NCBI GenBank assembly: GCA_965222605.1
Contig: OZ244960.1
Location: 4,288,001 to 4,352,000, forward strand
Length of the DNA stretch: 64,000 nucleotides
Direction: 5' to 3'
Origin: Candidatus Latescibacterota bacterium
Lineage (GTDB): Bacteria > Latescibacterota > UBA2968
The notes under the pieces were generated by a model that did no database searches, had not been told where the DNA came from, and saw only the letters and a program-made list of their open reading frames with translations. Shown here piece after piece: positions 5,509 to 24,091 of this stretch. The translations under genes were made by a program, and so were the position numbers. Each line of letters opens with the position of its first letter. Positions within the stretch are counted from its first letter, which is position 1.

Positions 5509-6654
5509 GTGGAAGTGAAGATTCGAGCGATTGCGATTTCGGTTTTTGAATTGCCTGCTAATACGGGGCGGTTTCGGATGGAACAAGCCGGTCGTGGTGC
5601 CCGCAAGCGATGGGAAAATCGGGGAGCGGGTAAGTCGGCAGAGCAGATACACGTTTTGCATGTGAAAACCGATGAGGGTATCGAAGGGGTATGTACAGTG
5701 GGGGATGCGCGGTACACGACGATGCGTCTTGAAGACCTGGAGCAATTGCGGTTGTTAACGGTTGGCGAAGATCCATTTGATCGCGAACGACTCACTCAAA
5801 AATTACACAAAGCAACGCGCAGCATGTTCACACGCCCTGGATGGTTTGGCGCTTTTGACAATTGTTTGTGGGATATTGCTGGCAAGGTTGCGGGACTGCC
5901 CGTTCACAGTTTGATTGGTCGAGCGCGGTCTTCCTGTGCGGCTTATTACAATTTTAGAAGTGGGTCACAAGAGGAGGCTGTAGCCGATGCAACACAGGCA
6001 GTGAAACGGGGATTTTTGGCTGTAAAGGATCACTTCAGGGGTACGGCAGATGAAAATATCGCGTGTTTTCACGCTGTGCGCGATGCGGTTGGGAGTGATG
6101 TCGATATTTTGCACGATGCCGCAGGGTGTGATTACACGTTGCAAGATGCGATTCGGGTGGGTAAGACTCTGGAGGCGTTGCGGTTTGGGTGGTTTGAAGA
6201 ACCTTTGACAGATCGGGATCAAAAAAATTTGCAGCGTTTGTGTGCCGCGCTGGACATTCCCATTTTGGCGCCTGAGACTTTGATGCACGATGTAGATTTG
6301 AGCGCGCAATGGATTATTTCCGGGGCAACCGATGCCCTGCGTGCCAATGCGCGGCTGGGTACAACTCCGACGTTGAAACTGGCACATTTGGTGGAGATGC
6401 ACGGTGCAAATATTGAATTCAATGGACCGGGTGGGTTGTTTGGGCTGGTGCATGCACATCTGGTTTGTGCCATATCGAATACGAGTTATTACGAGTTTTT
6501 CCCCGGAGGCTCCCGGGATGTGCGCGGTCGTGAGATTGGATTGCTAAATCCTCCTCTGCCCGAGAATGGCCATATTACACCGCCCAATAGTCCCGGATGG
6601 GGTGCCGAATGGGATTGGGAGTTTTTTGAGAAGAAGCGGATAGGAGAGTTATAA
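5509..6654 (+). CDS. Mandelate racemase/muconate lactonizing (enolase superfamily) enzyme
   Basis: DNCLWDIAGK, metal ligands in HDA / WFEEP / APE, C-terminal PGWG. Confidence 0.88.
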   Translation: MEVKIRAIAISVFELPANTGRFRMEQAGRGARKRWENRGAGKSAEQIHVLHVKTDEGIEGVCTVGDARYTTMRLEDLEQLRLLTVGEDPFDRERLTQKLHKATRSMFTRPGWFGAFDNCLWDIAGKVAGLPVHSLIGRARSSCAAYYNFRSGSQEEAVADATQAVKRGFLAVKDHFRGTADENIACFHAVRDAVGSDVDILHDAAGCDYTLQDAIRVGKTLEALRFGWFEEPLTDRDQKNLQRLCAALDIPILAPETLMHDVDLSAQWIISGATDALRANARLGTTPTLKLAHLVEMHGANIEFNGPGGLFGLVHAHLVCAISNTSYYEFFPGGSRDVRGREIGLLNPPLPENGHITPPNSPGWGAEWDWEFFEKKRIGEL

Positions 6655-6660
6655 AAAGCA

Positions 6661-6762
6661 ACCACAGATGGACGCAGATGAACGCAGAAAAAAAAGAGGG
6701 CTGGTTTTGTACGGGCAGGTTGAACTGCTGTCGCAGTTGTACCCCGTTCGAAACCTGCCCCT
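6661..6762. repeat. Short tandem repeat followed by a REP-like inverted repeat
   Basis: ACCACAGATG-GACGCAGATG-AACGCAGA 10-nt period; GGGCAGGTT (6713-6721) pairs with AACCTGCCC (6752-6760), with an inner AACTGC/GCAGTT stem. Confidence 0.6.
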
Positions 6763-6787
6763 TCGCTGACAACTGAAAGGAGATTTT

Positions 6788-8032
6788 ATGGCTTCTGATA
6801 AACCAAATATTATTCTGATTCTGTCCGATGATTTGGGATATGAATGCCTGGGGTGTTATGGAGGTGAATCATATCAAACGCCCGTGCTGGATGGTTTGAG
6901 CAAAGAGGGTATGCGTTTTGACCATGCATATGCCCTGCCGTTGTGTACGCCGACGCGGTTACAGTTGATGACGGGTAAATACAATTTTCGAAATTGGAGA
7001 GCTTTTGGGGTGATGGATCCCCATGAGCGCACTTTTGGGCATCTGATGAAAGCGGCTGGCTATAAGACGTGTATTTCGGGCAAATGGCAAATGTATAGCT
7101 ATAATCCGCCGGATTTTGAACCCGAGTGGCGCGGCAAAGGGCAACTGGCGGAAGATTCGGGTTTTGATGAGTATTGCTTGTGGCATACGGAACACACGGA
7201 GGATAAGGGATCGCGGTATGCCGATCCAGTAATTCAACAAAATGGGAAGTATTTGGAGGATACAGAGGGCAAGTACGGTCCGGATATTTATACGGCTTAT
7301 ATTTGCGATTATATCGAGCGACATAAGGACGATCCGTTTTTTGTGTATTACCCAATGGCGCTGACACACGGTCCGTTTGAACCGACGCCCCATAGCGAAA
7401 TATGGTCTGAAAACCGGCACGATAGCGGTGTGAAGTATTTTGTGGATATGGTTGAGTATATGGATGTGGTGATTGGGCGAATTGTGGATAAATTGGATGA
7501 ACTCGGTCTGAGAGAGAATACTCTGCTTCTGTTTATAGGCGATAATGGATCGCCCCGTCAGGTGACTTCTATTATCAATGGTCGCGAGTTCCAGGGGGGG
7601 AAGGGTCTTTCGACGGATGCGGGTACGCGGGTGCCACTTATTGCGAGTTGGTCGGGTACGATCCCACCGGGGTCTGTGTGTGATGATTTGATCGATTGCA
7701 GCGATTTTTTGCCGTTGATGATGGATATGGCTGGCACTTCTTTGCCCGAGGACGATGTGTTTGATGGGGTGTCATTTTTGCCTCAGTTAAAGGGCGAGAC
7801 GGGAACGCCGCGCGAGTGGATTTTTGCCCATCACGATCCTCTGCCCGGATGGGGTAAGGTGGGCTACTACTTAAAGCGATGGGCACAGGATAAACGTTGG
7901 AAGCTCTACGATACGGGCGATTTGTATGATGTTGTAGTAGATGAGTTGGAAGAACACCCAATCGTCGATGGAGGTGCAGAAGCAGAGGCAGCGCGACAAA
8001 AATTACAGCCCGTGCTGGATCGGATGAAGTGA
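6788..8032 (+). CDS. Sulfatase (formylglycine-dependent, arylsulfatase-like)
   Basis: PNIILILSDDLG, CTPTR signature, GKW, GDNG. Confidence 0.95.
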   Translation: MASDKPNIILILSDDLGYECLGCYGGESYQTPVLDGLSKEGMRFDHAYALPLCTPTRLQLMTGKYNFRNWRAFGVMDPHERTFGHLMKAAGYKTCISGKWQMYSYNPPDFEPEWRGKGQLAEDSGFDEYCLWHTEHTEDKGSRYADPVIQQNGKYLEDTEGKYGPDIYTAYICDYIERHKDDPFFVYYPMALTHGPFEPTPHSEIWSENRHDSGVKYFVDMVEYMDVVIGRIVDKLDELGLRENTLLLFIGDNGSPRQVTSIINGREFQGGKGLSTDAGTRVPLIASWSGTIPPGSVCDDLIDCSDFLPLMMDMAGTSLPEDDVFDGVSFLPQLKGETGTPREWIFAHHDPLPGWGKVGYYLKRWAQDKRWKLYDTGDLYDVVVDELEEHPIVDGGAEAEAARQKLQPVLDRMK

Positions 8033-8062
8033 GGCGGCGTTTATCTCGCCGATATTTCCAAC

Positions 8063-8091
8063 TTGACACAGTTTGTGTACAGCAATAAAAT
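8063..8091 (+). promoter_or_regulatory. Sigma70-type promoter of the helicase/ATPase operon
   Basis: TTGACA (8063-8068), 17-bp spacer, TAAAAT (8086-8091); ACACA-GTT-TGTGT palindrome overlaps the -35 box and spacer. Confidence 0.7.
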
Positions 8092-8138
8092 TACACGCGA
8101 GCAGAAATCACTTACACTCAAAGCAGAAGGTAATCCAA

Positions 8139-8972
8139 ATGGCAGATCGAGAAGAATTTCTTGAGCAAATGCAAGAGAGATTGACGGATGTGGTCAAGCC
8201 CTATCAACTACAGCAGAACCGCCGTCAAAGAATGGCCGATTTTGTGAAACAATGTGTCCGCTGTGCCGGGCGGAATGACTTTTTTCAACTCGACGAATTG
8301 CTGAAGTCTAAAATGGCACGCAATGTGCAAGAAGAAGTGGGGCTAAAGGAAGGTGCAGAATTTCTATATCAATTGCGTACTTATGCAGATGAACAGGTGG
8401 AGCGATACCGAATCCAATTTATAGAAGACCTGACGACATTAGCCAATGAAGCAAAACTTCCAATAGAGATCGATTTCCCGCGCATTGGAGTACTCAAGGG
8501 CATAGAGGGAGAAGTTGACTTTGCTCAGCGGAAAACTGTAATTAACAAAAAAGCCTTGAAATCCGTAGATCCAAAGCGTATTATTACCGCCCTGCGAAGG
8601 GTAAAGCAGCAACTCTATGATCGCCCTTATGATCCACAGGCATTTATTGACAAACTATATGACGTATATGCGGAAATTCTCAAAAAAGAAAAGCGAGAGA
8701 TGGGGCATCCCGTTGCAATGCAGCAATTATATCTGGAATATGTGTTATCTCTTCAGAGTCGGGCATTTTTTCAGGACATGGACAAGGGAAAGTTTCGAGG
8801 GTATAGCCTGGATCAATTTGCCGTAGATATTTGGCGTTATTTTCAGGCCGGTACTGGGGGCACGTCAAATGGCTATGCTGTGCAGCTAAGACCGGGGCGG
8901 AATAGGGCACTTTGGTTGATTGACAGCGATGGAGAACGGCGGCAGATTACCACCATTGCTTTTCAAACCTAA
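8139..8972 (+). CDS. Hypothetical protein, first gene of the putative defence operon
   Basis: ATG at 8139 after GAAGGT; mostly helical, no recognised motif; 15 bp gap to the next gene. Confidence 0.8.
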   Translation: MADREEFLEQMQERLTDVVKPYQLQQNRRQRMADFVKQCVRCAGRNDFFQLDELLKSKMARNVQEEVGLKEGAEFLYQLRTYADEQVERYRIQFIEDLTTLANEAKLPIEIDFPRIGVLKGIEGEVDFAQRKTVINKKALKSVDPKRIITALRRVKQQLYDRPYDPQAFIDKLYDVYAEILKKEKREMGHPVAMQQLYLEYVLSLQSRAFFQDMDKGKFRGYSLDQFAVDIWRYFQAGTGGTSNGYAVQLRPGRNRALWLIDSDGERRQITTIAFQT

Positions 8973-8987
8973 AAAAGGACATGACGC

Positions 8988-10283
8988 ATGACACAAAAAG
9001 ATTTGGAGCAACTCAAACCCTTTGAGGCGCGGGCAATTATTGAAGATCTCCGAAAAGGTAGCGTGCCGATTGAGTATGTGCCCTTTTTTACTGTGGGTCG
9101 CCAGAACTGGTTGAAGTTTATCGAAGAAGACCTGGATAACTACATCGCAGAGGGGGGCGCGAAGGTTCGCTTTGTCAATGGTGACTACGGCGATGGCAAA
9201 ACGCATTTTATGTCGGTTATCAAGCACCTCGCGCTTCAAAAAAAATTCGCCGTGTCTTTTGTGGTGCTCACGCGCGAAGTGCCCATACACAAATTTGAGA
9301 TTGTCTATCAAATTATTGTGCGGCAACTTTGCGGTTCTTTTGAGGGCGTTGGTATCCGACAACTCGTTGATGCGTGGGTCGAAAATCTGAAAACCGATCT
9401 GACAGATGACGCACCCCTTGAAGAACAACTTTTTTTTGTGGGCGAAAGCCTGCGTGCCCTTTCTGGGATGGATCTCAACTTTGCCAACGCTCTGATTGGG
9501 TTGGCAGACAATCGTCTCAGACCTCTCGAGGTAGGTGAAGACGAAGAGGCGCGTGCATATCAGCGGGAGATTCTCTACCAGTGGTTTGAAGGCGCGCGGG
9601 TGAGCAAGCGAGAACTCAAACCGTTCCAGATTTTTGAAGCCCTTGATAAGACCAATAGCAAGCGATTTCTGACCTCGCTCATTGTCTTTTTGCGGCATCT
9701 CAACTACAAGGGCCTCGTGCTGTTGATGGACGAATTGGAAACCGTGATCGCCCAATCGACAACCATTCGCAATGCGTCATACGAAAATGTCCGCTTGCTG
9801 ATCGACAATGCCGAGCAGGCATCTTATTTGCATATTTTTATGTCCATCATTCCCGATGTGACGCTCTCAGAAAAGGGATTTAAGTCCTATGACGCCCTGT
9901 GGAGTCGCGTGCGTTCCATTGGGGAAAGCAAAAGACTGAATTACCGCAGCGTGTTGGTAGATCTTCACAGGACGCCTTTGGAAACGAGCGAGTTGGTCAA
10001 TCTGGGACTTTGCCTGAAACGCATTCACGAACTGTCCTACCGATGGGATGCCCAGGAACAGGTTGATGAAGCGTTGCTTAAAAAGATGTGTGCAGCGCAA
10101 AAGCGCATGGGGCTTTTAAGTGAGGTTCGGCTCTATATCAAGCAAGTCATCCGCATACTCGACATGGCCGAGCAAGGTGTGCCGCCAGACGAAGATATGG
10201 ATATGGCCGAGCAACTCGTGGTCAGCCAGCGGGAAATGGATCAAGAAAAAGTTGAGCAACTTCAACCGACGTGGGATGCCTGA
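8988..10283 (+). CDS. DUF2791 / BrxD-like P-loop ATPase
   Basis: LRKGSVP..VGR N-terminus, Walker A GDYGDGKTH, Walker B LLMDELE, SYDALWSR. Confidence 0.85.
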   Translation: MTQKDLEQLKPFEARAIIEDLRKGSVPIEYVPFFTVGRQNWLKFIEEDLDNYIAEGGAKVRFVNGDYGDGKTHFMSVIKHLALQKKFAVSFVVLTREVPIHKFEIVYQIIVRQLCGSFEGVGIRQLVDAWVENLKTDLTDDAPLEEQLFFVGESLRALSGMDLNFANALIGLADNRLRPLEVGEDEEARAYQREILYQWFEGARVSKRELKPFQIFEALDKTNSKRFLTSLIVFLRHLNYKGLVLLMDELETVIAQSTTIRNASYENVRLLIDNAEQASYLHIFMSIIPDVTLSEKGFKSYDALWSRVRSIGESKRLNYRSVLVDLHRTPLETSELVNLGLCLKRIHELSYRWDAQEQVDEALLKKMCAAQKRMGLLSEVRLYIKQVIRILDMAEQGVPPDEDMDMAEQLVVSQREMDQEKVEQLQPTWDA

Positions 10284-11500
10284 TGACCGACTTTCACACC
10301 CCATCCAATGAAACGGAATTCCACCTGCGGCGTGCAACAGAACGCCTGCGGGAGGGGCTTTTTGATCCGGTTGCGGTTCGCTTGCTCACAGCCCGCGAAA
10401 GCCGCCTGAACAAAATCATTGACCGCGACTTTCAAAAACTCGATCAAAATAAGGCGACCCACCTGTGCATCTGTGGGGCTTATGGACAGGGTAAATCGCA
10501 CAGTTTGAACTATATCCAGGACAGGGCCCTGCGCGAAAATTTTGTGACCAGCCTGATCAATTTGGACCCTCGAGAAATTCCCTTTCACGATATGCGACGG
10601 GTCTATCATGCCCTGGTCGCCTCTATGAGATTTCCAGACACAGACACCTCATGGGCAGCGCGATGGCGCGTTTTTGCCGCTGGCCTGCCGCACGAAGACT
10701 TTGAAGACCGGGTCGCCCCGCTTTTACACCGTGAAATGCCACACCTGTTCCGATCTGTCCTGACCGCGATGGCTCAAAAAACAATCTCCCTTTCAAAGCG
10801 ACAGCGCGGCACCAAAAAACACGCCTCATACCGCCCTCGTGAATTTCCCTACCTGCTTTCCCGCGCGCTTACAGGCGATGTGGTTCCGGTCTATCGCCTG
10901 CGCCATGCCCTCAAGTACCGACAGGTTGATTTTTACAAAGATGAATCACTTACCTGTAAAGGTGCAGAGCCTTATCTTCAAATGATTCGCGGATTGGGGC
11001 AGCTTTTCCAGATGATGGGCTACCGGGGATGGGTGTTGTTGTTTGACGAAGGAGAATCGATTTCTCAAGTGCGCGTGACCAGCCGCAGCCGCAGTTACCA
11101 GATTCTGGATCAGATGCTTTTCCCTGAAGTTCCGTCCGCATCTGTTTATCCGGTTTTTGCCTTTACAGACGACTTTTTTTACAAAGTAGATGAAGAAGAA
11201 TACGACCGCGTGCGAATCCGCAACGAAGAGGAAATTCCCTATTTTGAGAAAAATTACGCCCGTGCATGGACGGGTCTGAAACGCTATCCCCTTCAGGATT
11301 TGTCTGCCAAAGAGTGGCACGCGTTGATCGAAAAATTGATGCACTTGCATGCCAGAGCTTATCAGTGGCAGCCCGATGCCGATGTGCAGCGCGACATGAC
11401 CCGACGATTATCGCACATGCAAGGGCAGGAGACGCGCTATCGGCTCAAAGGTCTGGTCGATGAATTGGACCTCGCACATCAAGCCCAAATACTGATTTAA
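10283..11500 (+). CDS. Second DUF2791 / BrxD-like P-loop ATPase
   Basis: ERLREG N-terminus, Walker A GAYGQGKSH, Walker B LLFDEGE; TGATG stop/start overlap with the previous gene. Confidence 0.8.
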   Translation: MTDFHTPSNETEFHLRRATERLREGLFDPVAVRLLTARESRLNKIIDRDFQKLDQNKATHLCICGAYGQGKSHSLNYIQDRALRENFVTSLINLDPREIPFHDMRRVYHALVASMRFPDTDTSWAARWRVFAAGLPHEDFEDRVAPLLHREMPHLFRSVLTAMAQKTISLSKRQRGTKKHASYRPREFPYLLSRALTGDVVPVYRLRHALKYRQVDFYKDESLTCKGAEPYLQMIRGLGQLFQMMGYRGWVLLFDEGESISQVRVTSRSRSYQILDQMLFPEVPSASVYPVFAFTDDFFYKVDEEEYDRVRIRNEEEIPYFEKNYARAWTGLKRYPLQDLSAKEWHALIEKLMHLHARAYQWQPDADVQRDMTRRLSHMQGQETRYRLKGLVDELDLAHQAQILI

Positions 11501-11529
11501 ACCCTATCAGCACATGTTTTGTAACCACC

Positions 11530-14500
11530 ATGTCTGAACCTATCTCGCCTCTGCTTCAACTGCCCAATACCTGCCGCGCATTCTACGGCTCTTTTCCCCA
11601 TCTCTATCCCTTTCAAAAGCAAGCGATTGAACCGCTCTTGCAGGGCAAAGATCTGATCTTACAATCGGCAACCGGCTCTGGCAAAACCGAAGCCGTGCTG
11701 GCGCCGTGTATCGAGCGCGTGATTCAATCGGGGCGGCGACAAACCGCGCTTTATGTGGTGCCCACCCGCGCCCTGGCCGTGGATTTGGAACGCCGTTTGA
11801 CGCCTGTCTTAAAGGACAGACTCGGCCTGCAAATTGGAATACGCACGGGCGATTTCAAACGGGCGGGCGGGGCATTGCCCGATTTGTTATTGACAACGCC
11901 CGAATCTTTTGATGTGCTCATGGGCAGTCCAAATGCAGATTTAAAACAGTTTGTACAGCGCATTCGCACGGTCATTATCGATGAAGCACATCCTTTTATT
12001 CATCAGTATCGCGGGCGGCAATTATCCTATTTGCTCACGCGCTTGCAACGCCGCATCGCCCATCCCGTGCAAAAGATCGCCCTTTCCGCCACGCTTTCCG
12101 ATGTCGAGGAGGTCGCCCGTTTTTTTGGCTTCCGAACCGATACCGTTTTCCTGACCGAATCTGTCCAACGCGATATTGTCCCCCATCTGATCCATCTCAA
12201 AAACGATGAGGTCGAACTCGTCGCGCTCCTAAACGATCTCTACGAAACCTACGAGTATCGCAAAATTTTGTTATTCGCCAACAGCCGGGGGTGTTGCGAC
12301 CGGCTGTTTTCTCTTTTGTCGCGTCAGGGTGCGTTTCAAGGTGTTACTGACCTCCACTACTCCAACCTCAATGCCAGCACGCGCCGCGCCGTGGAATACC
12401 GATTTCGCCGCCGCGAACACGCCCTTTGCATTGCCACCAGCACCCTTGAACTCGGCATAGATATCGGCGATGTGGATAGCGTCTTGCTCTACGAACCGCC
12501 GGATTCCATATCGGCCTTTCTCCAGCGCATTGGTCGCTCCAACCGGCGAGAGGGGCGTACGCACTTTTGGGGAATATGCCGCGGCGCAGATGCACAGGCG
12601 CAATTGCTCAGATTTTTGGGAATGCTCAACAGGGCGCGCCGCGGCCATATTGAAACACCGCAACCCAAAACTCTGCCCAGCGTTCTCGTCCAGCAAATGC
12701 TCTCCTGCCTCTACGAAAAGAAAACTATCACGCAGTCTGCTCTTTGCGATTTGTTTCCAGACCAGCGAGATATGATCGCACCGTTGTTTGAGGCCATGGC
12801 GCGGCAACAGTGGCTGCAAAAAGATCGCGTCACGGGCCTTTTTAAGGGTGGATGGTGCTATCGCGATTGTTTTTTAGAACGGCGTATTTGGAGCAATTTT
12901 CCCGACATGGAAGAGGATTATGTGCTGGAATATGCGGGCGAAGCCATTGCAGACTTGCCCAAATTCATCGTTCGGCAATTGGAACTCGGCGACCGCGTGC
13001 AACTGACGGGCAAACGATTGCGCGTTTTGAATATTGAAACGGGTGAACGCAAAAGAGTTATTGCCCAACCCACCGATCAAATAGAAACCAAAGAGCTTTT
13101 CTGGCTGGGTGCGGGGTTTCGGGTTTCTTATGAAGTCGCACAATCGGTTCGAGATGTACTTCAGACAGATGTGCAACAAAGCGCGTCTGGCTTATTTTCC
13201 CGCACGCGAAAATTGTTCAACGATGCGGCAAAAAGGCTAAAGCGCGTGGTCGTTTTGCACAATGGCATCGAAGTTGAGCGCAGCTTGAACAACTTGTATC
13301 GCTATCGCACCTATCTCGGTTCTGTAGGCAATCTCGTGCTTCAGTGGATTATTGAACGCGATTACGGCGATCTCAAAGATTTTATGGTGACTTCCGATAG
13401 TATCGGTATCGATTGTTCTCATTGGATTGATTTTCAAACGCTCCACCTCCCACAAGACCGCGAAGATTTTGTCCAATGGGTGGCAAATCATCTCGAATCC
13501 CTGTATAGCCTGTTTCAGCTCAATGCCTTTTGCGAGGCATTGCCCGGCGCCTTGTTGGTGCAAGAAGTGACAGATTTCCTCTTTGACCCGCGCGTTGCCA
13601 AAACCTTCCAGCACTACCTGAAACACCCTTCGGAAATCGCATCTGGCGATCCTGGCCTGCTCACGGAAGATATCCATGTGACCGAATCTCACCCCATTTT
13701 TTTGGATACAAAAATACAAACCGATCTGCTCACCAGGGAAAAACAGCGGTGGCATGCGGATCGACACGCGGAACAGCCATCTGACCTACAGTATCGCCCG
13801 CGGTCACTCACGGGCACAATGGTGGGCGCGTATTTTTTGCACCATCAATGTGAACGGTGGTTGGCCCTCAATTTTGTTCCAGCTAAACAAAGGCGGTGGC
13901 GAGATAGCGATACAGATTTGGACACTCTTCGGATGGAACGGGGAAACCTGCACGAAAAACAGGTGCTGAATCGCATTCGGAATGTCTTGCACGAAGTGCC
14001 GGCCTTTGATACCAACGGCACGCGACTTTCTCTCAAATCGCGATTTGAAACAACCCGAACGCTGTTGAAAGATCTGGCACGCGACGCAACCTCCAATCAA
14101 TCTACATTTTTGTTTCAAGCTGTCCTGATCCAACCATCTGTTTTGGGACAACAAGACCACTGGGTGAGCGAGGTAGATGGCATCGGTATTCCCGATCTCA
14201 TCCGCATTTCAAAAGAAGACCGCGGCGTTGTGTTGCAAGTGGGCGATATCAAAGACAGTCGCAGGCCCTACGAGACACAAAAGTGGCAGGTTGCATTTTA
14301 CGCCTATATGCTCGACAGCTTGATCGCACAGCACGAGTTGCCCATGCGCGTGGCGTCTTCGGGATTTTTGATGCTGCGTCCCGCACAGGAAAACGAAGCC
14401 CCCGAACCGCATTTTTTTGATCTCGAACCCTACCTGGCGGCACTTCCTATGCTGTTTCGAAATATGGGCAACGTATTGCAACGCGCACCTGCCCGCGCGC

Positions 14501-17211
14501 GTTATCACCTCCAAACCCACTGTACGGGGTGCCCCAATTTTGAGGCGTGTTATCGGGAAGCACTTCAGACAGAGGATATTCACCTTTTGCCGCATCTGAG
14601 CGCGGGGACGTTGCAAAAGTTTCGCCAATGCGGTCTCAAAACTATGGCATCTGCCCATGCGTGGTTTGAATCTGCGTCCGCTTCAGAAGGCGATCTTTTC
14701 AGCCCACATCAAAAAACACAACTTTCGGGTCAACTCGCCGCGCTTCAGGCAAATAAAATTGGTCTAAAGAAAGAAAAAACGCGGTTTTATCCGAGCAATC
14801 TGTCCACCGCCATTTTCATATATGTCGTCGAAGATCCCCTTTCTGGGCTCCCACGCGCGATAGGTTGGCGCGCTGTGCAGGGGGCAACGGTGGTCGAGAA
14901 CCATATCTGGCATGTCGCATCGGAGCGCGAGTTATCAGAGGCATTGCAGGACTTCACAGCGCGTTTTTTGTCCGTCTGGAATCAGAGCATCAAAGGCGGA
15001 CGGGGACCGCATATCTTTCATTTTGGAGCGCGTTGCTGGCAAACTTTTGAAGAATGGTGCGAGTCATCAGAAGACCTGTCTTTTTTGTTTTTGCCCCATC
15101 GCAACCACCGAACAGATTTGCAAAAGCTGATCGCGTCGCACTTCGACTTTCCAATGCCGGGAAATCCGACGCTTTTTGCCCTCAATCGCCTGTTGGGTCT
15201 CAATGCCGAACTTCCCGAACCGCAAAGTCTGTTTCATTTTGATGACGACGAATGGATACAAAATGAAGACGAAAAAAAAATGGTTGACTATCTCAACGCG
15301 GTATTGAGCCTGAAAATATCGCTGTGGCAATGGACATCATCGCACTTGACGAGCGATTGGGAACAAGACGAATGGAAAGATGAGGAACACAGCCCGCAAA
15401 CGGCCTATTTAAATTTTCTATCAGAGGAGCAGCGGCTCCGCGAAGAAGATGTGCTCGCCTTGCAAGCCCTGCCACTGTCAGAACGCGTTGAACGCTTTCG
15501 CGCGATTGGTCCCATCCGTTTTCGGAAAACGACGCTTGACGACGAAGGCCGCTTCCTCTACGAATTTCAAACAGAAGCGGGCCTCTCAAAATTTCGCGCG
15601 GGCGATTTTCTCAAACTTGCACCTGTTGGCCTGTTAGATGTGCAAAACGGTTTGTCCGTCATCCTGACAGATCACAGCTCGGAACGCCTGTGGGTGCAGT
15701 CTCGGCAGGGACGATTGGCCTTAAACGAGAGACTTTTGTATTCTCTGGAAGAGGACCTGACCGATTGGAATGGCCCTCGCCTGGTTCACGCTGTTCAGGC
15801 TGTTTTTTTCGAAGATCATTTCCACCTCCTATCCAAGCTATTTTCTGGCACCTGGCGCACGGCAAGAGAACCCGACGCGCTGAGATGGGTGCATAATTGG
15901 ATGCGCGGATTTGGCGCGATATCCGGACTCAATGCAATGCAACAACAGGCACTATCATTGCCTTTTAAGCATCGCTTGAGCCTGATTGAAGGGCCGCCAG
16001 GAACGGGTAAAACACACTTATTGGGCTGGATATTGGTTGCATTGATTCTGCATGCTCAAGAGCAGGGCAGACCGCTGCGTATTGCCGTCAGCGCGTTGAC
16101 GCATCAGGCCATTGACCAGGTGCTGAAAAAAGTGGTCGCGCTCGTCAAACAACACGGCTTGCAGGGCTTTCCCGCCCGATGCTTCAAATTGGGACGGTGG
16201 GATTTGACAGAGCGCGGGGTAGAACCCTTAGAGGATGTGGAAACACTCGCAGAATCTCCTTATGCAATTGTAGGTGCCACGGGATTTGGTCTCTATCAGC
16301 TACTCGAAGGTCGCAAAGGGACTTTCCCGCAGGTATTTGATTGGGTTGTGTTTGATGAGGCATCTCAAATGCTCATTCCCCAGGCCCTGTTGAGCCTGCT
16401 CTATGGCAAGGGAAATTTTCTGTTTGCCGGAGATACAAAACAATTACCGCCCATTGTCCTGGGAGATTACAAAGGGAAGGAAATGAGCATACATCATTCC
16501 GCGCTGTCCCATCTTATCAATCAATACGATCCCTCGCACCGCGTTCGATTGGATCGCACGTATCGGATGAACGAAGACCTGTGTTCTTTTCCCAGTCACA
16601 TGTGGTATGACCGCGATCTTCGCGCCCACGCTGGCAATGCACAAAACCGACTCGTGCTGCAACATACCGACCACCGCGATCTTTTAGACCGCGTTCTCGA
16701 TCTCAAAAAACCAGTTGTACTCCTCATCGTAGATCACCAGGGCCACCACCAGAAATCCGATGAGGAAATTGAGATTACAACCCAACTCGCTCATCGCCTG
16801 ATTGCCGAACACGGTTTGGATCCCGATCAAATCGCGCTGATTTCTCCCCACCGCGCACAAAACAACGCCACTGCGGACCGCCTCACACAGCGACTTGGAG
16901 ATGCCAACGCCAAACTGCCCTTAATCGATACGGTAGAACGCGTGCAAGGCGCAGAGCGCGATGTGATTTTGTATGCGTTCACCACCTCCGATCCCGACTA
17001 TGTCTCCAGCCCATTTTTGAACAACCCAAATCGCTTTAATGTGGCAATCACACGCGCCCGACAAAAGCTGATTGTGGTGGGCAGCAAAGCATTTTTCTCT
17101 GCCATTCCACAAACAGAGGACGCCTTAAAAGCCAACCGCTGTTTTAAGGCGTTTTACGAATTTTGTCGAGAACGAGATAGCCTCTTTTTTTTGGGTGGAA
17201 CTAACTCCTAA
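11530..17211 (+). CDS. Fusion of Lhr-like DEAH SF2 helicase, RecB/Cas4-like (TM0106-type) nuclease and Upf1/Dna2-like SF1 helicase
   Basis: SF2: ATGSGKT, PTRAL, DEAH, SAT, ATSTLELGIDIG, QRIGRSNR. Nuclease: GIPDL, DIK, QVAFY, CTGCPNFEAC. SF1: GPPGTGKT, DEASQ, GDTKQLPP, TYRM, QGAERD, NVAITRAR. Confidence 0.88.
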   Translation: MSEPISPLLQLPNTCRAFYGSFPHLYPFQKQAIEPLLQGKDLILQSATGSGKTEAVLAPCIERVIQSGRRQTALYVVPTRALAVDLERRLTPVLKDRLGLQIGIRTGDFKRAGGALPDLLLTTPESFDVLMGSPNADLKQFVQRIRTVIIDEAHPFIHQYRGRQLSYLLTRLQRRIAHPVQKIALSATLSDVEEVARFFGFRTDTVFLTESVQRDIVPHLIHLKNDEVELVALLNDLYETYEYRKILLFANSRGCCDRLFSLLSRQGAFQGVTDLHYSNLNASTRRAVEYRFRRREHALCIATSTLELGIDIGDVDSVLLYEPPDSISAFLQRIGRSNRREGRTHFWGICRGADAQAQLLRFLGMLNRARRGHIETPQPKTLPSVLVQQMLSCLYEKKTITQSALCDLFPDQRDMIAPLFEAMARQQWLQKDRVTGLFKGGWCYRDCFLERRIWSNFPDMEEDYVLEYAGEAIADLPKFIVRQLELGDRVQLTGKRLRVLNIETGERKRVIAQPTDQIETKELFWLGAGFRVSYEVAQSVRDVLQTDVQQSASGLFSRTRKLFNDAAKRLKRVVVLHNGIEVERSLNNLYRYRTYLGSVGNLVLQWIIERDYGDLKDFMVTSDSIGIDCSHWIDFQTLHLPQDREDFVQWVANHLESLYSLFQLNAFCEALPGALLVQEVTDFLFDPRVAKTFQHYLKHPSEIASGDPGLLTEDIHVTESHPIFLDTKIQTDLLTREKQRWHADRHAEQPSDLQYRPRSLTGTMVGAYFLHHQCERWLALNFVPAKQRRWRDSDTDLDTLRMERGNLHEKQVLNRIRNVLHEVPAFDTNGTRLSLKSRFETTRTLLKDLARDATSNQSTFLFQAVLIQPSVLGQQDHWVSEVDGIGIPDLIRISKEDRGVVLQVGDIKDSRRPYETQKWQVAFYAYMLDSLIAQHELPMRVASSGFLMLRPAQENEAPEPHFFDLEPYLAALPMLFRNMGNVLQRAPARARYHLQTHCTGCPNFEACYREALQTEDIHLLPHLSAGTLQKFRQCGLKTMASAHAWFESASASEGDLFSPHQKTQLSGQLAALQANKIGLKKEKTRFYPSNLSTAIFIYVVEDPLSGLPRAIGWRAVQGATVVENHIWHVASERELSEALQDFTARFLSVWNQSIKGGRGPHIFHFGARCWQTFEEWCESSEDLSFLFLPHRNHRTDLQKLIASHFDFPMPGNPTLFALNRLLGLNAELPEPQSLFHFDDDEWIQNEDEKKMVDYLNAVLSLKISLWQWTSSHLTSDWEQDEWKDEEHSPQTAYLNFLSEEQRLREEDVLALQALPLSERVERFRAIGPIRFRKTTLDDEGRFLYEFQTEAGLSKFRAGDFLKLAPVGLLDVQNGLSVILTDHSSERLWVQSRQGRLALNERLLYSLEEDLTDWNGPRLVHAVQAVFFEDHFHLLSKLFSGTWRTAREPDALRWVHNWMRGFGAISGLNAMQQQALSLPFKHRLSLIEGPPGTGKTHLLGWILVALILHAQEQGRPLRIAVSALTHQAIDQVLKKVVALVKQHGLQGFPARCFKLGRWDLTERGVEPLEDVETLAESPYAIVGATGFGLYQLLEGRKGTFPQVFDWVVFDEASQMLIPQALLSLLYGKGNFLFAGDTKQLPPIVLGDYKGKEMSIHHSALSHLINQYDPSHRVRLDRTYRMNEDLCSFPSHMWYDRDLRAHAGNAQNRLVLQHTDHRDLLDRVLDLKKPVVLLIVDHQGHHQKSDEEIEITTQLAHRLIAEHGLDPDQIALISPHRAQNNATADRLTQRLGDANAKLPLIDTVERVQGAERDVILYAFTTSDPDYVSSPFLNNPNRFNVAITRARQKLIVVGSKAFFSAIPQTEDALKANRCFKAFYEFCRERDSLFFLGGTNS

Positions 17212-17391
17212 CCCCTAACACTTTGTTCCATCCGAGATGGCTATTGTGAACATATCGTTCAATACATGTTTGCTTTGATGTGGTGTAATTTTTTTTATAA
17301 CAATAAGTTATTGCTCCGGACGGTTCTGGCATAATCCTTGCCTGATTGTAGTGCTTCTTTCAGTTGGTTCCTTTCAGGCAAGGAGGTTTTG

Positions 17392-18930
17392 ATGACTGCG
17401 CGTGTGTTGAGTTGTGCAACACTGGGTATTGATGCGTATATCGTGCATATTGAGGCGGATATTTCGCGTCGGCTTCCCTCGTTTTCAGTGGTGGGTTTGC
17501 CCGATAGTGCTGTGAAGGAAAGCCGGGACCGGGTGATGGCTGCGATTAAAAATGCCGGGCGAACATTTCCAAATAATCGGATTACGGTGAATTTGGCACC
17601 GGCAGATATCCGAAAAGAAGGCTCGGCATTTGATTTGCCGATTGCCATAGGCATTATTGCCGCAATGAGCGGTTCAATTTCACCCGAGAAGCTGTCGCAA
17701 TATCTCATTTTGGGCGAGTTGGCTTTAGATGGCAGGGTGCGTCCTGTGCGCGGTGCGCTGTCAATGGCTGTGGAAGCCAAAAAGGCGGGCTTAAAAGGGT
17801 TGCTCATTCCTGTGGAAAATGCGCGGGAGGCGGCGATTACCGGCGATTTGAATGTTTTGCCGGTGCGCGATTTGGGTGAGGCACTGGATTTTTTGGAGGA
17901 CTACTGCGATATTATGCCCTTTGAAGTCAATAGCAAAGCGATTTTCCGGCAGGCGCGGACCCATCGGGTGGATTTTAAGGATGTGCGCGGACAAGAACAT
18001 GCAAAGCGCGCGCTGGAGGTGGCGGCGGCGGGCGCGCATAACGCGATTCTTATGGGGCCACCCGGGTCGGGGAAGACGATGCTCGCCAGAAGATTGCCGA
18101 CCATTTTACCCGATCTGACCCTGGACGAGGCACTGCAGACGACAAAAATTCACTCGGTGGCGGGGTTGCTGCCACCCGATACGGCAGTGGTGGCGATAAG
18201 GCCCTTTCGGTCGCCGCATCACACGATTTCAGATGCGGGATTGATCGGCGGTGGTCCCTATCCCCGACCGGGAGAAGTGTCGATGGCACATCACGGGGTG
18301 CTGTTTTTGGATGAGCTTCCCGAATTTAAGAAACAGGTTTTGGAGTCCCTGCGCCAACCTATTGAGGACAGTTTTGTGACGATTGCACGGGCGGCGATAT
18401 CGCTTTCATATCCCGCGCAGTTTATGCTCGTTTGCGCTATGAATCCGTGTCCATGCGGGTATTTGGGCGATCCACACCACGAGTGTATTTGCTCGCCACC
18501 TGTGATCCAACGCTATATCAATCGAATCTCGGGACCGTTGATGGATCGCATTGATATTCACGTAGAAGCCCCGGCTGTGCAGTATGAAGAACTGGTCAAT
18601 GAACCCGCTGGCGAGTCTTCCGCAGAGGTTCGCAAGCGCGTGCAAGCCGCCCGGCAAATGCAATTGGAACGGTTTGGGGATTATACAGATTTGTTTAGCA
18701 ACGCGCACATGGGGCCGCGAGAGATTCGGTTGTTTTGTAAAATAGATGATAAGAGCCAGGAGTTGCTGCGGATGGCGATTACGCGATTGGGGCTGTCGGC
18801 GCGGGCTTATGATCGAATCCTGAAGGCGAGCCGCACGATAGCAGACCTGGAGGGTGAAGAGGATATCCAGTCGCGCCATGTTGCCGAGGCGATTCAATAT
18901 CGCAGTCTGGACAGGAGATTGTGGGAGTGA
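17392..18930 (+). CDS. comM: YifB/ComM Mg-chelatase-like AAA+ ATPase
   Basis: VGLPD, NLAPADIRKEGSAFDLPIA, GPPGSGKTM, PFRSPHH, LFLDELPEF, AMNPCPCG; AAGGAGG before ATG 17392. Confidence 0.93.
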   Translation: MTARVLSCATLGIDAYIVHIEADISRRLPSFSVVGLPDSAVKESRDRVMAAIKNAGRTFPNNRITVNLAPADIRKEGSAFDLPIAIGIIAAMSGSISPEKLSQYLILGELALDGRVRPVRGALSMAVEAKKAGLKGLLIPVENAREAAITGDLNVLPVRDLGEALDFLEDYCDIMPFEVNSKAIFRQARTHRVDFKDVRGQEHAKRALEVAAAGAHNAILMGPPGSGKTMLARRLPTILPDLTLDEALQTTKIHSVAGLLPPDTAVVAIRPFRSPHHTISDAGLIGGGPYPRPGEVSMAHHGVLFLDELPEFKKQVLESLRQPIEDSFVTIARAAISLSYPAQFMLVCAMNPCPCGYLGDPHHECICSPPVIQRYINRISGPLMDRIDIHVEAPAVQYEELVNEPAGESSAEVRKRVQAARQMQLERFGDYTDLFSNAHMGPREIRLFCKIDDKSQELLRMAITRLGLSARAYDRILKASRTIADLEGEEDIQSRHVAEAIQYRSLDRRLWE

Positions 18931-19708: not shown

Positions 19709-21886
19709 ATGAAACGCGATGCAAAAAAAATTATAATACGAGGTGTAAAGGGAGAGGTGTGCATTCAGCGGATGGCGCATGGGTTTCCGCATATTACGGC
19801 GCAGGATGAGGGGGATCGGTATTACGGTTTGGGTTATGCACATGGCCGGGACCGACAGATGCACATGTGGTTGCTCAAGCTCATCGGGCGTGGGAATGCG
19901 TCGGAATATCTGAAAGCGGATGAGAATTTGATTGAGGTAGATCGGTTTATGCGCTGGCTCAATATAGCTGGTGATGCGGATCGGGAAGCGCGGCATTTGT
20001 CACCTGAAGTGCAAGCGGTTCTGGATGCGTATTGCCAGGGGGTGAACCAGGCGGTTCGCGCAACGGGAACGCCTTTTGAATTTAAGATGATGGGATATCG
20101 ACCGGATGATTGGACGCCGGCAGATGCCTTGCTGATGGTTAAGCTGATCGGTTTTGTGGGGCTTTCCCAAATGCAGGGCGATATGGAAAAGTTGATTGTT
20201 CAGTTGATTCAAAAGGGCGTGGATACCGAGCGGTTAAAGGAGCTTTTTCCTGCGATTCGGGATGATATATCAGAAGAGTACATCGATCTAATAAAGAAGG
20301 TGCAGATAGTGCGTCCGATGATTCCGGGATCTGTGGTATGGCGCGATTTGTTGCCCAATTTTTCTGCGAGCAATAACTGGGCTGTTCGTCCGTCAAAGAC
20401 GGCATCTGGATGGGCGATGTTGTGCGGGGATCCACATCTGCAATTGCAATTGCCTTCGGTGTGGTATCTGGCGGTTCTGTCCGGGGGGCAGGACTATTTG
20501 ATGGGTGCGACTCTGCCGGGATTGCCCTTTGTGGCAATGGGACGGTCACCCCACTTGTCGTGGGCAGCGACCTATGGTACTGCCGATGTGTGTGATTATT
20601 TTGTCGAGGAAGTGAAAGATGGAAAGTACAGATGCGGGGATAAATGGATGCCTCTGCGTGTGCGAGAAGAGGTTATCCGACTCAAAAAGGGGGATCCAAT
20701 AAGGTTGCGCGTTTGCGAGACAGAACGCGGTTTGTTGGAAGGGGAGGTCAATGAGGATGGGTATTACCTGTGTTACGCGTGGACGGGCAAGCAGCAAAAA
20801 GGGACGGGTGCGGATTCGCTGGATTGTGTTTTGCGAATTACAAAGGCGGAGGGCGTCGAAGAGGCACGGGATTATTTTGCGGGGTTGACGTTTGCTCCGT
20901 TTAATTGGGTGTTTGCAGATCGGGCGGGAAATATTGGCTATCAACTCGGCGGGCTGGTGCCCAAACAACCCGAAGGTTCATCGGGTTTGCTTCCGTATTT
21001 GGGTTGGGATGAGAAACAGAATTGGGGCGGGATGGTCGATCCGATATTGTATCCGCGCGCGGTCAATCCTGATTTTATTGTGACGGCAAATCAGGATCTC
21101 AATTTTATGGGGCAGTTCGCGCCAATGAAATTGTCTATCTCGTCTTATCGCGCGGATCGAATCTGTGAGATATTGCGGGAAAAGGATGATTTAACAGTAG
21201 AAGATATGAAGCGGATTCACTACGATCTTTACGCGCTTCAGGCCAGGGATTTTATGGCGATTATACGTCCGTTATTACCCGAATCGGAGAACGGGGGTAT
21301 ATTGGGGGAATGGGATTTGTGTTATGATGCGGATTCTCTGGGTGCGACGCTTTTTGAGCGCGTTTATCGCGAGCTCGTTTTTCTCGTTTTTGGGGATAAT
21401 GGCCTGGGGCGCGAGATGATGGTGCATTTGCTGGATGGAACGACGCTGTTCAGTGTTCTGCACGGCTATTTTGATCGCATTCTTTTGAGCGAGGCATCAA
21501 TCTGGTTTGGAGACCAGCCGCGCGAAGCCCTGTATCAAATGGCGATTGAACGCGGGTTAAAAGAAAAAGCCGTGCCGCACGGTGAAGCGAGTAAAGTTTA
21601 TATTGAGCATATTTTTTTTAAGGGGAAGTTGCCGCGGTTTTTGGGATTTGATTATTCGTTTGCAAATATTGGCAGCCGGTCAACGGTTTCTCAGGCCGGC
21701 TTGTTCAAAGGCGGCGCGCTTGCGCCAACTTTTCGAATGATTTGCGATTTTGGGGAGGATGTGCTACACGCGAATGTTGCAGGGGGTGCTTCAGATCGAC
21801 GTTTTTCCAAATTCTATACGTCGGGGTTGGATGCGTGGGGAAGGGGGGATTACGAGGTTTTAGACCCGTTGGGGAATGACTGCTAA
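19709..21886 (+). CDS. Penicillin acylase family Ntn-hydrolase
   Basis: GFPHI, GYAHGRDR, nucleophile motif SNNWAV, DPHL, TANQ. Confidence 0.92.
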   Translation: MKRDAKKIIIRGVKGEVCIQRMAHGFPHITAQDEGDRYYGLGYAHGRDRQMHMWLLKLIGRGNASEYLKADENLIEVDRFMRWLNIAGDADREARHLSPEVQAVLDAYCQGVNQAVRATGTPFEFKMMGYRPDDWTPADALLMVKLIGFVGLSQMQGDMEKLIVQLIQKGVDTERLKELFPAIRDDISEEYIDLIKKVQIVRPMIPGSVVWRDLLPNFSASNNWAVRPSKTASGWAMLCGDPHLQLQLPSVWYLAVLSGGQDYLMGATLPGLPFVAMGRSPHLSWAATYGTADVCDYFVEEVKDGKYRCGDKWMPLRVREEVIRLKKGDPIRLRVCETERGLLEGEVNEDGYYLCYAWTGKQQKGTGADSLDCVLRITKAEGVEEARDYFAGLTFAPFNWVFADRAGNIGYQLGGLVPKQPEGSSGLLPYLGWDEKQNWGGMVDPILYPRAVNPDFIVTANQDLNFMGQFAPMKLSISSYRADRICEILREKDDLTVEDMKRIHYDLYALQARDFMAIIRPLLPESENGGILGEWDLCYDADSLGATLFERVYRELVFLVFGDNGLGREMMVHLLDGTTLFSVLHGYFDRILLSEASIWFGDQPREALYQMAIERGLKEKAVPHGEASKVYIEHIFFKGKLPRFLGFDYSFANIGSRSTVSQAGLFKGGALAPTFRMICDFGEDVLHANVAGGASDRRFSKFYTSGLDAWGRGDYEVLDPLGNDC

Positions 21887-23256
21887 AAGCTGGTCGCTCT
21901 GCCAATGCCTTTGAGTTTTTGATTTTTTTTGGCGCGCTGGTCAATTTTTTCAGGGGCGACGATGTTGTGGAGGTCGGCGCGAAGGTCGGAGAGGATGTCG
22001 GCACAGGTGGGGTTGTCGGCGCGATTCTCAATTTCGTCGGGGTCGTTAGCGACGTTGAATAATTGATCGGGAAGGCCGACGTAGTGGATGTATTTCCAGT
22101 CGCCTTTTTTGATCATAAAGCCGCCAGTTAGAGCACCGAGGGCGTGGTATTCGCTAAAGATGGGGCGGTCGGGGAAGGCGTGACCGCTGATGGCGGGTAG
22201 AAGGCTGCTACCGGGCAGTGGCGCGGGGTCCTGTTCGGCGAGGTCGAGAAGGGTGGGGAGGATGTCGATGAGGTTGGCTCCTGCGGCGATGCGCTGGTTG
22301 CCCGCGGCATTCGGGTGGCGAATGATCATGGGGACGCGAACGGCGCGTTCGTAGAAGCATTGTTTTTGCCATATACCGTGGTGCCCGCCCATTTCGCCGT
22401 GGTCGCTGACGTAGATGACAACGGTGTTGTCGCGCAGGGATGAGTTATCGACAATATCGAGCAGGCGACCAATGAGGTAATCGGTGAAAGAGATGAGGCC
22501 GTAGTAAGCAGCGGTTGCAGTGGTGGAGATGGCGTCGTCTAAGGGTTCTTCATTGCGCAGCCAGTAGCGGAGTTGCTGTATAGAGGGGTGTTGGGTGTCG
22601 CAGGGTTCGGTTCTCGTGTGTGGCAAGATGACGCGGTCGGGATAGTAACGGTCGAAGTATTCCCGCGGGCACAGGAGGGGGAAGTGGGGGTTTATGAAGC
22701 CGGTGTAGAGGAGAAAGGGACGGTCGGCGTGCGCGCGGGATTTGAGGAAGCGTTCGGAGAGGTCGGCGGCTGTGTGGTCGTAGTCGTTTTGCCAGTTTTC
22801 GTCGGAGCCGCATTCGGTGACGTGGCTGTTGCTGGCGCGCCGGGCGTCGGGTGTGCGCGAGGGGGCACTCATATTCCAGTGTTTCCATTTTTCGGCGTCG
22901 TCCATGAGTCGCTTGCCAAAGCCGTGCAGGCGTTCGGGACCTATGAAATGGGAGCGACCGCAAATTGCGGTTTCATAGCCGGCGGCTTCGAGGTAGCTGC
23001 CCATTGTGGGGATTGAACTCGCGAGGGGCGAGCCGTTGTCCCAGGTGCCGATCTGGTGGACGTATTGCCCGGTCATAAAGGACATGCGCGCCGGTACGCA
23101 TATCGGGCAGGCGGTATAGGCATTGTCAAAGGTGGTGCCTTCGGATGCGAGGCGATTCAGGTGTGGTGTTTCGATATAAGGATGGCCGTAACAGCCGGTG
23201 ACTGCGGGGTCGTGTTCATCGCTCATGATGAGCAAGATGTTGGGACGCTGGCTCAT
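21883..23256 (-). CDS. Sulfatase (choline-sulfatase-like)
   Basis: PNILLIMSDEH, CVPAR signature, SDHGEM, DPDE. Confidence 0.93.
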   Translation of the reverse strand: MSQRPNILLIMSDEHDPAVTGCYGHPYIETPHLNRLASEGTTFDNAYTACPICVPARMSFMTGQYVHQIGTWDNGSPLASSIPTMGSYLEAAGYETAICGRSHFIGPERLHGFGKRLMDDAEKWKHWNMSAPSRTPDARRASNSHVTECGSDENWQNDYDHTAADLSERFLKSRAHADRPFLLYTGFINPHFPLLCPREYFDRYYPDRVILPHTRTEPCDTQHPSIQQLRYWLRNEEPLDDAISTTATAAYYGLISFTDYLIGRLLDIVDNSSLRDNTVVIYVSDHGEMGGHHGIWQKQCFYERAVRVPMIIRHPNAAGNQRIAAGANLIDILPTLLDLAEQDPAPLPGSSLLPAISGHAFPDRPIFSEYHALGALTGGFMIKKGDWKYIHYVGLPDQLFNVANDPDEIENRADNPTCADILSDLRADLHNIVAPEKIDQRAKKNQKLKGIGRATSF

Positions 23257-24063: not shown

Positions 24064-24091
24064 ACGCTGACTCGTGCTAATATCTCCCGAT
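24064..24091. repeat. 28-bp direct repeat, copy 2
   Basis: ACGCTGACTCGTGCTAATATCTCCCGAT; overlaps the stop of the upstream sulfatase. Confidence 0.85.

Follow-up and report, generated by a model that had tools for sequence, protein, structure and literature searches.

A four-gene cassette with two ORC/Cdc6-like ATPases and a helicase-nuclease fusion in a Latescibacterota genome, a probable relative of the Shango and type-2 BREX modules

The sections of 10.1101/2022.11.11.516204 drawn on here describe Shango as a system of modest anti-phage activity that is made up of the TerB-like protein SngA, the ATPase SngB and the DEAD/DEAH helicase SngC. In the consulted part of the BREX survey PMC12839542, BrxD is an ORC/Cdc6 AAA+ ATPase, tightly linked to BrxHI as a dyad, and is proposed to be a helicase loader or activator. 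Here we analyze a locus within a stretch of 64,000 nucleotides from a Candidatus Latescibacterota genome (the window; contig OZ244960.1, positions 4,288,001 to 4,352,000; the genome is G000 below), and positions are given in the numbering of the window. Both Shango and the BrxD-BrxHI pair matter for defence, and to our knowledge nobody has established how either works. The window carries at 8139-17211 a cassette of four co-directional open reading frames (ORFs) on the + strand, which were confirmed to be real and are named genes A to D. We favor, with moderate confidence, the view that the cassette is a self-contained, horizontally acquired nucleic-acid surveillance unit, most probably for anti-phage or anti-plasmid defence, in which A-B-C would sense and load and D would be the degrading effector. 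The first-pass annotation had proposed an undescribed stand-alone defence system. A conserved and self-contained unit was indeed found, and no description of it was met in the literature; the defence part of that proposal is what we infer.

Gene A (8139..8972) codes for a 277-amino acid (aa) protein of an unannotated family. Its ORF opens with a TTG at position 8073, but the ATG at 8139 is the likely start, as it matches the N-termini of the homologues; a GAAGG motif lies a few bases 5' of it. Gene B (8988..10283) codes for a 431-aa ORC/Cdc6-like AAA+ ATPase of the BrxD/SngB type (PF10923), gene C (10283..11500) for a divergent paralogue of B, of 405 aa when counted from the ATG in the TGATG overlap, and gene D (11530..17211) for a 1,893-aa fusion of a superfamily 2 (SF2) helicase, a nuclease and a superfamily 1B (SF1B) helicase. 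The four genes are as tightly coupled as first reported, with a gap of 15 bp between A and B, a one-base stop/start overlap (TGATG) between B and C, and a gap of 29 bp between C and D.

Two ATPases with the DUF2791 domain had been proposed, and both B and C do match PF10923 (BrxC_BrxD, formerly DUF2791), gene B at 1.6e-55 and gene C at 2e-22. With PADLOC, which was used for hidden Markov model (HMM) profile matches and not for the full system rules, gene B matched BrxD (1.4e-43) and SngB (2.1e-33), and gene C matched BrxD (2.3e-18). Both proteins stayed below the 350-bit cut-off of the NCBIfam BrxD equivalog NF033438, with 146.4 bits for B and 65 bits for C. The two are full-length paralogues (23% identity over 404 aa) with intact Walker motifs: K71 of Walker A and D248 and E249 of Walker B are invariant in 30 aligned B sequences, K71, D255 and E256 are invariant in 27 aligned C sequences, and over 74 B and 60 C sequences the motifs are kept at at least 95%. 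The only named relatives of gene B were SngB, found beside TerB proteins, and BrxD, found beside PglZ, both on plasmids. A quick maximum-likelihood tree of 43 ATPases with long branches, which included three SngB and three BrxD references and was assessed by the approximate likelihood ratio test SH-aLRT, had its deepest split (support 96) between the C-type ATPases, all of which group together, and a second group that holds every B-type ATPase as well as SngB and BrxD. The ATPase is duplicated, as had been noticed, and C forms a clade distinct from B. Taken at face value, the tree suggests that the duplication is older than the diversification of the cassette, and that neither Shango nor BREX has a counterpart of C. 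As a separate observation, G000 holds outside the window (C1:3975286-3975540) a weak N-terminal PF10923 match (4.1e-5) in a 1,673-aa open frame, which may code for another protein with an ORC/Cdc6-like ATPase.

The N-terminal part of gene D (residues 1-693; 11530..13608) is a helicase of the Lhr/BrxHI/SngC type, with K52 in motif I and the DEAH box at residues 151-154. Residues 22-693 cover positions 22-687 of the 698 positions of the PADLOC BrxHI model (2.9e-87), and residues 22-618 match the SngC model (3e-73). The nearest solved sequences are those of mycobacterial Lhr (5v9x, 2.7e-33; 7lhl, 1.4e-32). Since the score with TIGR04121 was far under the equivalog cut-off (204.7 versus 850 bits), we regard gene D as Lhr-like and not as an Lhr orthologue. 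This part is followed by a Cas4/Dna2-type PD-(D/E)XK nuclease (residues ~760-1010; 13807..14559; PF12705, 1.2e-4) that bears the D...D/E-x-K...Q-x3-Y signature; the columns of Cys774, Cys998, Cys1001, Cys1007 and K908 show no variation and that of D889 almost none, and the set also includes Q920 and Y924. An AlphaFold model of residues 700-1470, with a predicted local distance difference test (pLDDT) score of 82, was compared with solved structures by Foldseek; its best match was Dna2 (5ean, 1.7e-6), followed by Cas4 (8d3l_I, 5.9e-5) and then by Exo5, MGME1, AdnAB and AddB, and it also matched the N-terminal barrel of IGHMBP2. In the model, a beta-alpha-beta domain of RNase-H-like topology (residues ~1075-1230; 14752..15219) follows the nuclease and precedes the second helicase; it carries no conserved acidic residues and gave weak fold matches only (3hrg, transposases, Argonaute). 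This domain is probably RNase-H-like and non-catalytic, and it is the least certain of our domain calls. The C-terminal part (residues 1467-1893; 15928..17211) is a Dna2/Upf1-type SF1B helicase with K1494 in motif I and the motifs DEASQ, QLPP, TYRMN and QGAER. It matches AAA_11 (2e-22) and AAA_12 (6.6e-30), and the nearest solved sequences are DNA2 (5ean), UPF1 and IGHMBP2, with DNA2 reaching 9.3e-23 over residues 1464-1860 by phmmer. The helicase and nuclease motifs are all conserved in 28 full-length homologues. Gene D thus does combine a helicase with its own nuclease and a second helicase, as the first reading of the sequence had it; in public annotation it is a "DEAD/DEAH box helicase", and gene A is "hypothetical". 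Further matches of gene D, namely PLuB_AAA (152.6 bits, cut-off 999), ProA (49 bits, cut-off 1500), DpdJ, DpdF, MkoA, Cas3 and HamB, were rejected as generic similarity of the helicase core.

The first gene had been reported to lack a recognisable motif, and the gene A protein matched nothing in Pfam, PADLOC or NCBIfam at E<=0.01. At E<=1e-3 it has 485 homologues, of which every named one is a "hypothetical protein". A profile search of 1.84 billion representatives returned 356 clusters at E<=1e-3, of which 75 stayed within E<=1e-10, the ESM Atlas returned unnamed "hypothetical protein" clusters only, and 65 members of the superfamily shared no consistent Pfam or PADLOC family. No fused form was seen among proteins of 642-2000 aa, a range in which absence is weak evidence. 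The AlphaFold2 model (pLDDT 84) consists of a long helical hairpin (residues 2-104), a small five-strand beta-sheet (109-140), and a helical and winged-helix-like region (145-277). Foldseek of this model against the PDB gave nothing at E<=1e-3. With VIA, the best match had a Z of 7.1 at a root-mean-square deviation of 10.4, and winged helices of ORC/Cdc6, gyrase and topoisomerase IV had Z values of 6.5-6.8, a range that is common for VIA. Because these matches are weak and Foldseek found none, we describe the C-terminal domain as winged-helix-like and no further, a weak assignment that comes from the model.

We considered whether the cassette could be a copy of a described system, either Shango or a remnant of type-2 BREX, to which extra domains were added. 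The matches of B to SngB and BrxD, the grouping of the B-type ATPases with both in the tree, and the matches of the first third of D to SngC and BrxHI are what this explanation would predict. The remaining components do not fit it. As the first-pass annotation had noted, neither a TerB-like SngA nor PglX or PglZ is found among the proteins of the cassette or its flanks. TerB (PF05099) is absent from gene A, from 65 of its relatives and from the whole genome, and when the gene A profile was aligned with a plasmid-borne SngA by hhalign the probability was 0.2%. None of the BREX core proteins PglZ, PglX, BrxC/PglY and PglW is encoded in the cassette or in the flanking genes, and the sole ORF of the genome with a PglZ domain (534 aa) lies ~120 kb away. 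In addition, the 146 bits of gene B compare with a BrxD cut-off of 350, and the separate clade that ATPase C forms does not occur in Shango or BREX. It is improbable that the cassette is such a copy.

The conservation of the gene order was analyzed by tblastn and ORF prediction in 80 genomic loci that encode a gene A relative, from records labelled Latescibacterota, Desulfobacterota, SAR324 and Nitrospirota. The gene A proteins of these loci are 49-97% identical to that of the window. Gene B follows A in 78 of the 80 loci, and the remaining two end at a contig edge; where there was room for gene C after B (70 loci), it is there in 68 and missing from L037 and L047. In 41 of the 56 loci where gene D could be judged it is directly downstream, in one (L021) it lies 7.2 kb downstream, in two (L080 and L082) it is upstream of A, and in 12 the fetched DNA does not contain it. 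Two of the 41 loci (L027 and L072) hold only the Lhr-like part, of 725-736 aa, and in one locus (L017, genome G172) a break near residue 1050 divides gene D into two ORFs. The proposed four-gene order is therefore conserved, with A-B-C nearly invariant and D directly behind it in most of the loci judged.

Three of these loci showed features of their own. In the cable-bacterium loci L019 (4731-10413) and L021 (11091-16271), three co-directional ORFs of 530, 382 and 325 aa occupy ~7 kb after gene C, and in L021 the D homologue starts beyond this stretch. In L027, from a Syntrophobacteraceae record, a 217-aa nucleotidyltransferase (NTP_transf_2/Polbeta; 13474-14127) is encoded between gene C and the 725-aa Lhr-like helicase.

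More distant relatives were examined at 11 chromosomal loci (L089-L099) and one plasmid locus (L100). The gene A superfamily was detected in 21 of 401 evenly sampled genomes of Desulfobacterota, the phylum of genome G168. Three chromosomal loci (L089, L091 and L096) carry gene A, two PF10923 ATPases and a 667-695-aa Lhr-like helicase without the nuclease (667-701 aa when the plasmid is included). In two others, L094 (5776-8001) and L095 (2087-4030), the genes after A-B-C are an ORF of 185-188 aa with no family assignment and a fusion of a SNF2 helicase with an Mrr_cat restriction nuclease, which replaces the Lhr-type helicase. One locus (L093) has A-B-C only, adjoining RecN-like and NnrD-like genes, and in another (L098) the A-like protein is fused to a helix-turn-helix domain. 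On the 26.9-kb Desulfomonile tiedjei plasmid pDESTI.01, the short four-gene form lies near AbiEi/AbiEii and parA; its products are named in RefSeq "hypothetical protein", "BREX system ATP-binding domain-containing protein" (twice) and "DEAD/DEAH box helicase".

The location of this short form beside parA on a small plasmid is also what would be expected if the cassette served a mobile element for its replication or maintenance, with ORC/Cdc6-like initiators, a DNA-binding protein and a helicase arranged as in the archaeal ORC-MCM pair. The weak resemblance of the gene A C-terminal domain to ORC/Cdc6 winged helices (Z 6.5-6.8) is in line with it, and so is the assignment of B and C to the ORC/Cdc6 AAA+ class, which follows the BrxD part of PMC12839542. 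On the chromosome, however, the insert consists of the four genes only, with no integrase, ends or origin-like repeats, gene D has a conserved nuclease, and no gene A relative was found on viral contigs. The two helicases of D are of the Lhr and SF1B types, neither of which is known to be a replicative helicase. We consider such a role very improbable.

The cassette is accessory, and is gained or lost as one block. Of the 168 genomes of the phylum 10 have gene A, and of the 21 of the genus five have it, G000 included; among the genus members without it are several complete single-contig genomes. Alignment with empty sites showed that the inserted segment (~8033..17217, 9.19 kb) extends from the stop codon of the upstream sulfatase-like gene to 6 nt past the stop codon of gene D. 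In all three cassette-free siblings examined (G083, G080 and G072) the site is empty, with ~96 bp from the sulfatase stop to the comM upstream region and flanks that are 92-94% identical to the window, and the four other carrier genomes of the genus have the cassette at the same site. In the metagenome runs X3 and X10, contigs join position 8030 to 17218 with 14 other letters in between, so that 9187 bases are skipped, and other contigs of the same runs cover the cassette. Filled and empty alleles hence co-occur in nature, within one species or between sister species. The composition of the cassette is foreign: the GC skew of its genes is -0.05 to 0.14, compared with 0.18-0.30 for the flanking genes. 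Neither terminal repeats nor a target-site duplication of at least 8 nt was found at the ends of the insert.

The cassette sits between catabolic genes and comM, as had been stated: nth, an enolase-superfamily dehydratase and the sulfatase-like gene lie upstream, and comM/YifB (TIGR00368, 1.1e-195) lies downstream. A single sigma-70 promoter ahead of the four genes had also been proposed. The sequence TTGACA-17-TAAAAT at 8063..8091 (+ strand), inside the inserted segment, agrees with the consensus at 11 of 12 positions and is the top-scoring site within 7800-17500. The number of promoter-like sites in that interval was nevertheless no higher than in shuffled sequences (9 versus 8.2 +/- 3.0), so that we retain it as a consensus match only.

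Our reading of the cassette as a defence unit draws on the homology of its ATPase and helicase to the Shango and BREX-2 pairs, its patchy distribution, the clean presence/absence polymorphism, the plasmid-borne relative and the swapping of effectors among relatives. A number of observations weigh against it. Gene A is unusually conserved for a defence gene, with 49-77% identity outside its own genus and across several phyla, and no relative of it was found on the viral contigs searched. Four distant loci (L090, L092, L097 and L099) hold an A-like gene of 279-287 aa without B or C, among metabolic genes that form a conserved run: OMPdecase/HUMPS (HPS), SIS (PHI), ketopantoate reductase (PanE) and a phosphoribosyltransferase; these A-like proteins align with gene A in the C-terminal domain only (hhalign E 3e-6). 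In the complete genome G169, whose locus L020 is among the 12 without D in the fetched DNA, the distance between A-B-C and a full-length D homologue is 2.1 Mb. Gene A is found in 14 of 119 genomes of the family of G169, 13 of which are one related block of what appear to be cable bacteria, and its retention there, with D unlinked, looks vertical. No modification enzyme or other device for telling self from non-self is visible in the cassette, and its flanks in the window are free of terminal repeats, an integrase and further genes of mobile elements.

The neighbourhood belongs with these points. We scanned 132 nearest-neighbour ORFs, taking no more than two on either side of a locus. Of the 76 loci from outside the genus of the window, 65 contributed and 11 had no usable flank; ORFs below 150 aa and seven more (two duplicate, five redundant or very long) were excluded. 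PADLOC matches (E<=1e-5) were a minority and in part generic (raw counts, with no background rate: mad2 7, PDC-S01 5, mad8 5, mad3 3, AriA 3, SoFic 2). Pfam matches were mostly to housekeeping families, the commonest being methyltransferases, DUF4143/AAA_14, MCP, histidine kinases and ABC transporters. A phage integrase was matched by just two of the 132 ORFs. Of the expected enrichment in defence islands these raw counts give a weak signal at most: some neighbours match PADLOC models, and the majority do not.

In the complete genome mentioned above (Electrothrix sp. YB6, L020), gene C (12127-13371) is broken into ORFs of 194 and 204 aa, and A, B and the unlinked D are intact.

The main rival is an accessory machine for DNA repair or fork processing, in which the Lhr-Dna2 fusion would be brought by gene A and the ORC-like ATPases to R-loops, broken ends or stalled forks on the cell's own chromosome. 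The Lhr, Dna2, AddAB, Exo5 and MGME1 proteins studied so far act in repair, and the modules of gene D belong to these families. The largely housekeeping neighbours, with comM adjoining the cassette in the window, and the RecN-like gene beside A-B-C in L093 would suit such a role, as would the high conservation of gene A, the lack of a gene for self/non-self discrimination, and the near-universal presence in the block of 13 related genomes where D is unlinked from A-B-C. The pattern within the genus is, on the other hand, hard to reconcile with it, since 16 of 21 species lack the cassette, several of them with complete genomes, and the empty sites are clean. The foreign composition, the plasmid-borne relative next to AbiE, and the replacement of the effector by a restriction-type SNF2-Mrr fusion likewise speak against repair, and the only named relatives of gene B are defence components. 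Furthermore, the genome of the window holds an AddAB-like locus, so gene D is not its sole end-processing enzyme. We judge the repair explanation rather unlikely. Should it nonetheless hold, the cassette would represent a new accessory end-processing pathway that is spread by horizontal transfer.

If the cassette is a defence unit, as we favor, B and C, whose Walker motifs are intact, could form a hetero-oligomer, and together with gene A they might recognise a particular state of DNA and load or license D. Gene D would then be a single-chain analogue of RecBCD/AddAB, in which an iron-sulfur nuclease of the Cas4/Dna2 type is combined with two motors, an SF2 helicase of the Lhr type and an SF1B helicase of the Dna2/Upf1 type. 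The direction of travel is 3'-to-5' for Lhr and 5'-to-3' for SF1B helicases. With such opposite family polarities, D could follow both strands of a DNA end or flap and degrade them. We infer that the proteins form a complex, that A-B-C loads D, that the motors have these polarities, that foreign DNA is attacked and that the outcome is defence. A broader proposal, which we put forward tentatively as a possibility, is that A-B-C may be an exchangeable ORC-like platform for helicase loading or licensing, able to arm a plain Lhr-like helicase, an Lhr-Cas4-SF1B fusion or a SNF2-Mrr fusion. It would be the two-ATPase ancestor or sister of the Shango and BREX-2 dyads, and D would be a two-motor RecBCD analogue loaded onto invader DNA much as initiators load helicases. 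That would amount to a bacterial immune use of the logic of origin recognition. Should the cassette restrict phages or plasmids, i) it would be a tractable system for asking whether ATPases of this kind load helicases, ii) a single-chain RecBCD-like effector would join the defence repertoire, and iii) it would show that different helicase-nuclease effectors can be joined to one sensor/loader module.

Some further observations concern the surroundings of the cassette. Three sulfatase-family ORFs lie within 20 kb (6788-8032, 21883-23256 and 24077-25507). The spacer between the dehydratase and the sulfatase-like gene (6653-6763) recurs in pieces of 27-57 bp, 84-100% identical, at dozens of places per genome in five genomes of the genus, which suggests a small interspersed repeat of this genus, similar to repetitive extragenic palindromic (REP) sequences or miniature inverted-repeat transposable elements (MITEs). 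The sequencing runs that hold DNA of the window include a sponge metatranscriptome (X21), in which three contigs of 154-242 nt fall on genes C and D; they were not used as evidence of expression, as the library may hold DNA and contigs do not demonstrate transcripts.

How the cassette relates to described systems can be judged gene by gene. As in Shango, a PF10923 ATPase is encoded directly upstream of an Lhr-like SF2 helicase and after a third, non-enzymatic gene. Gene A, in contrast to SngA, carries no TerB domain, and it did not detectably resemble the SngA with which it was compared. Shango has one ATPase, whereas the cassette has a second one, C, as an ancient paralogue, and gene B fits BrxD better than SngB by profile score. 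SngC has ~700 aa, and gene D has 1,893 aa with the Cas4/Dna2-type nuclease and the SF1B helicase added. With type-2 BREX the cassette shares the combination of a BrxHI-type helicase, of which gene D covers the whole model, and a BrxD-like ATPase; it differs in being stand-alone, in its two ATPases, in the added gene A and in a gene B that falls below the BrxD equivalog cut-off. Hachiman consists of the nuclease HamA and the Ski2-like helicase HamB, as given in the portion of PMC12278908 consulted. It resembles the cassette in coupling a Ski2/Lhr-like SF2 helicase to a nuclease in a stand-alone unit, and gene D matches HamB weakly (4.2e-18), but the cassette has no HamA homologue, encodes nuclease and helicase in one chain, and has gene A and two AAA+ ATPases besides.

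In architecture, the C-terminal two-thirds of gene D resemble Dna2, with a four-Cys PD-(D/E)XK nuclease ahead of an SF1B helicase. Like RecBCD, AddAB and AdnAB, gene D joins two motors and one nuclease. Unlike them, it is a single polypeptide, its second motor is an SF2 helicase of the Lhr type instead of an SF1A helicase, and it is coupled to ORC/Cdc6-like ATPases; we know of no Chi-like control of it. No paper describing the four-gene arrangement was found, and the supplementary tables of PMC12839542 might list stray BrxD genes. In its consulted sections, that survey defines "BR" systems centred on DUF499, and not an A-B-C-D cassette. On sequence grounds the cassette is most probably a third relative of the ATPase-helicase modules of Shango (SngB-SngC) and type-2 BREX (BrxD-BrxHI). 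It presents their common core in a stand-alone and enzyme-richer form, with two ATPases, a novel partner protein, and a nuclease and two motors that can be assayed.

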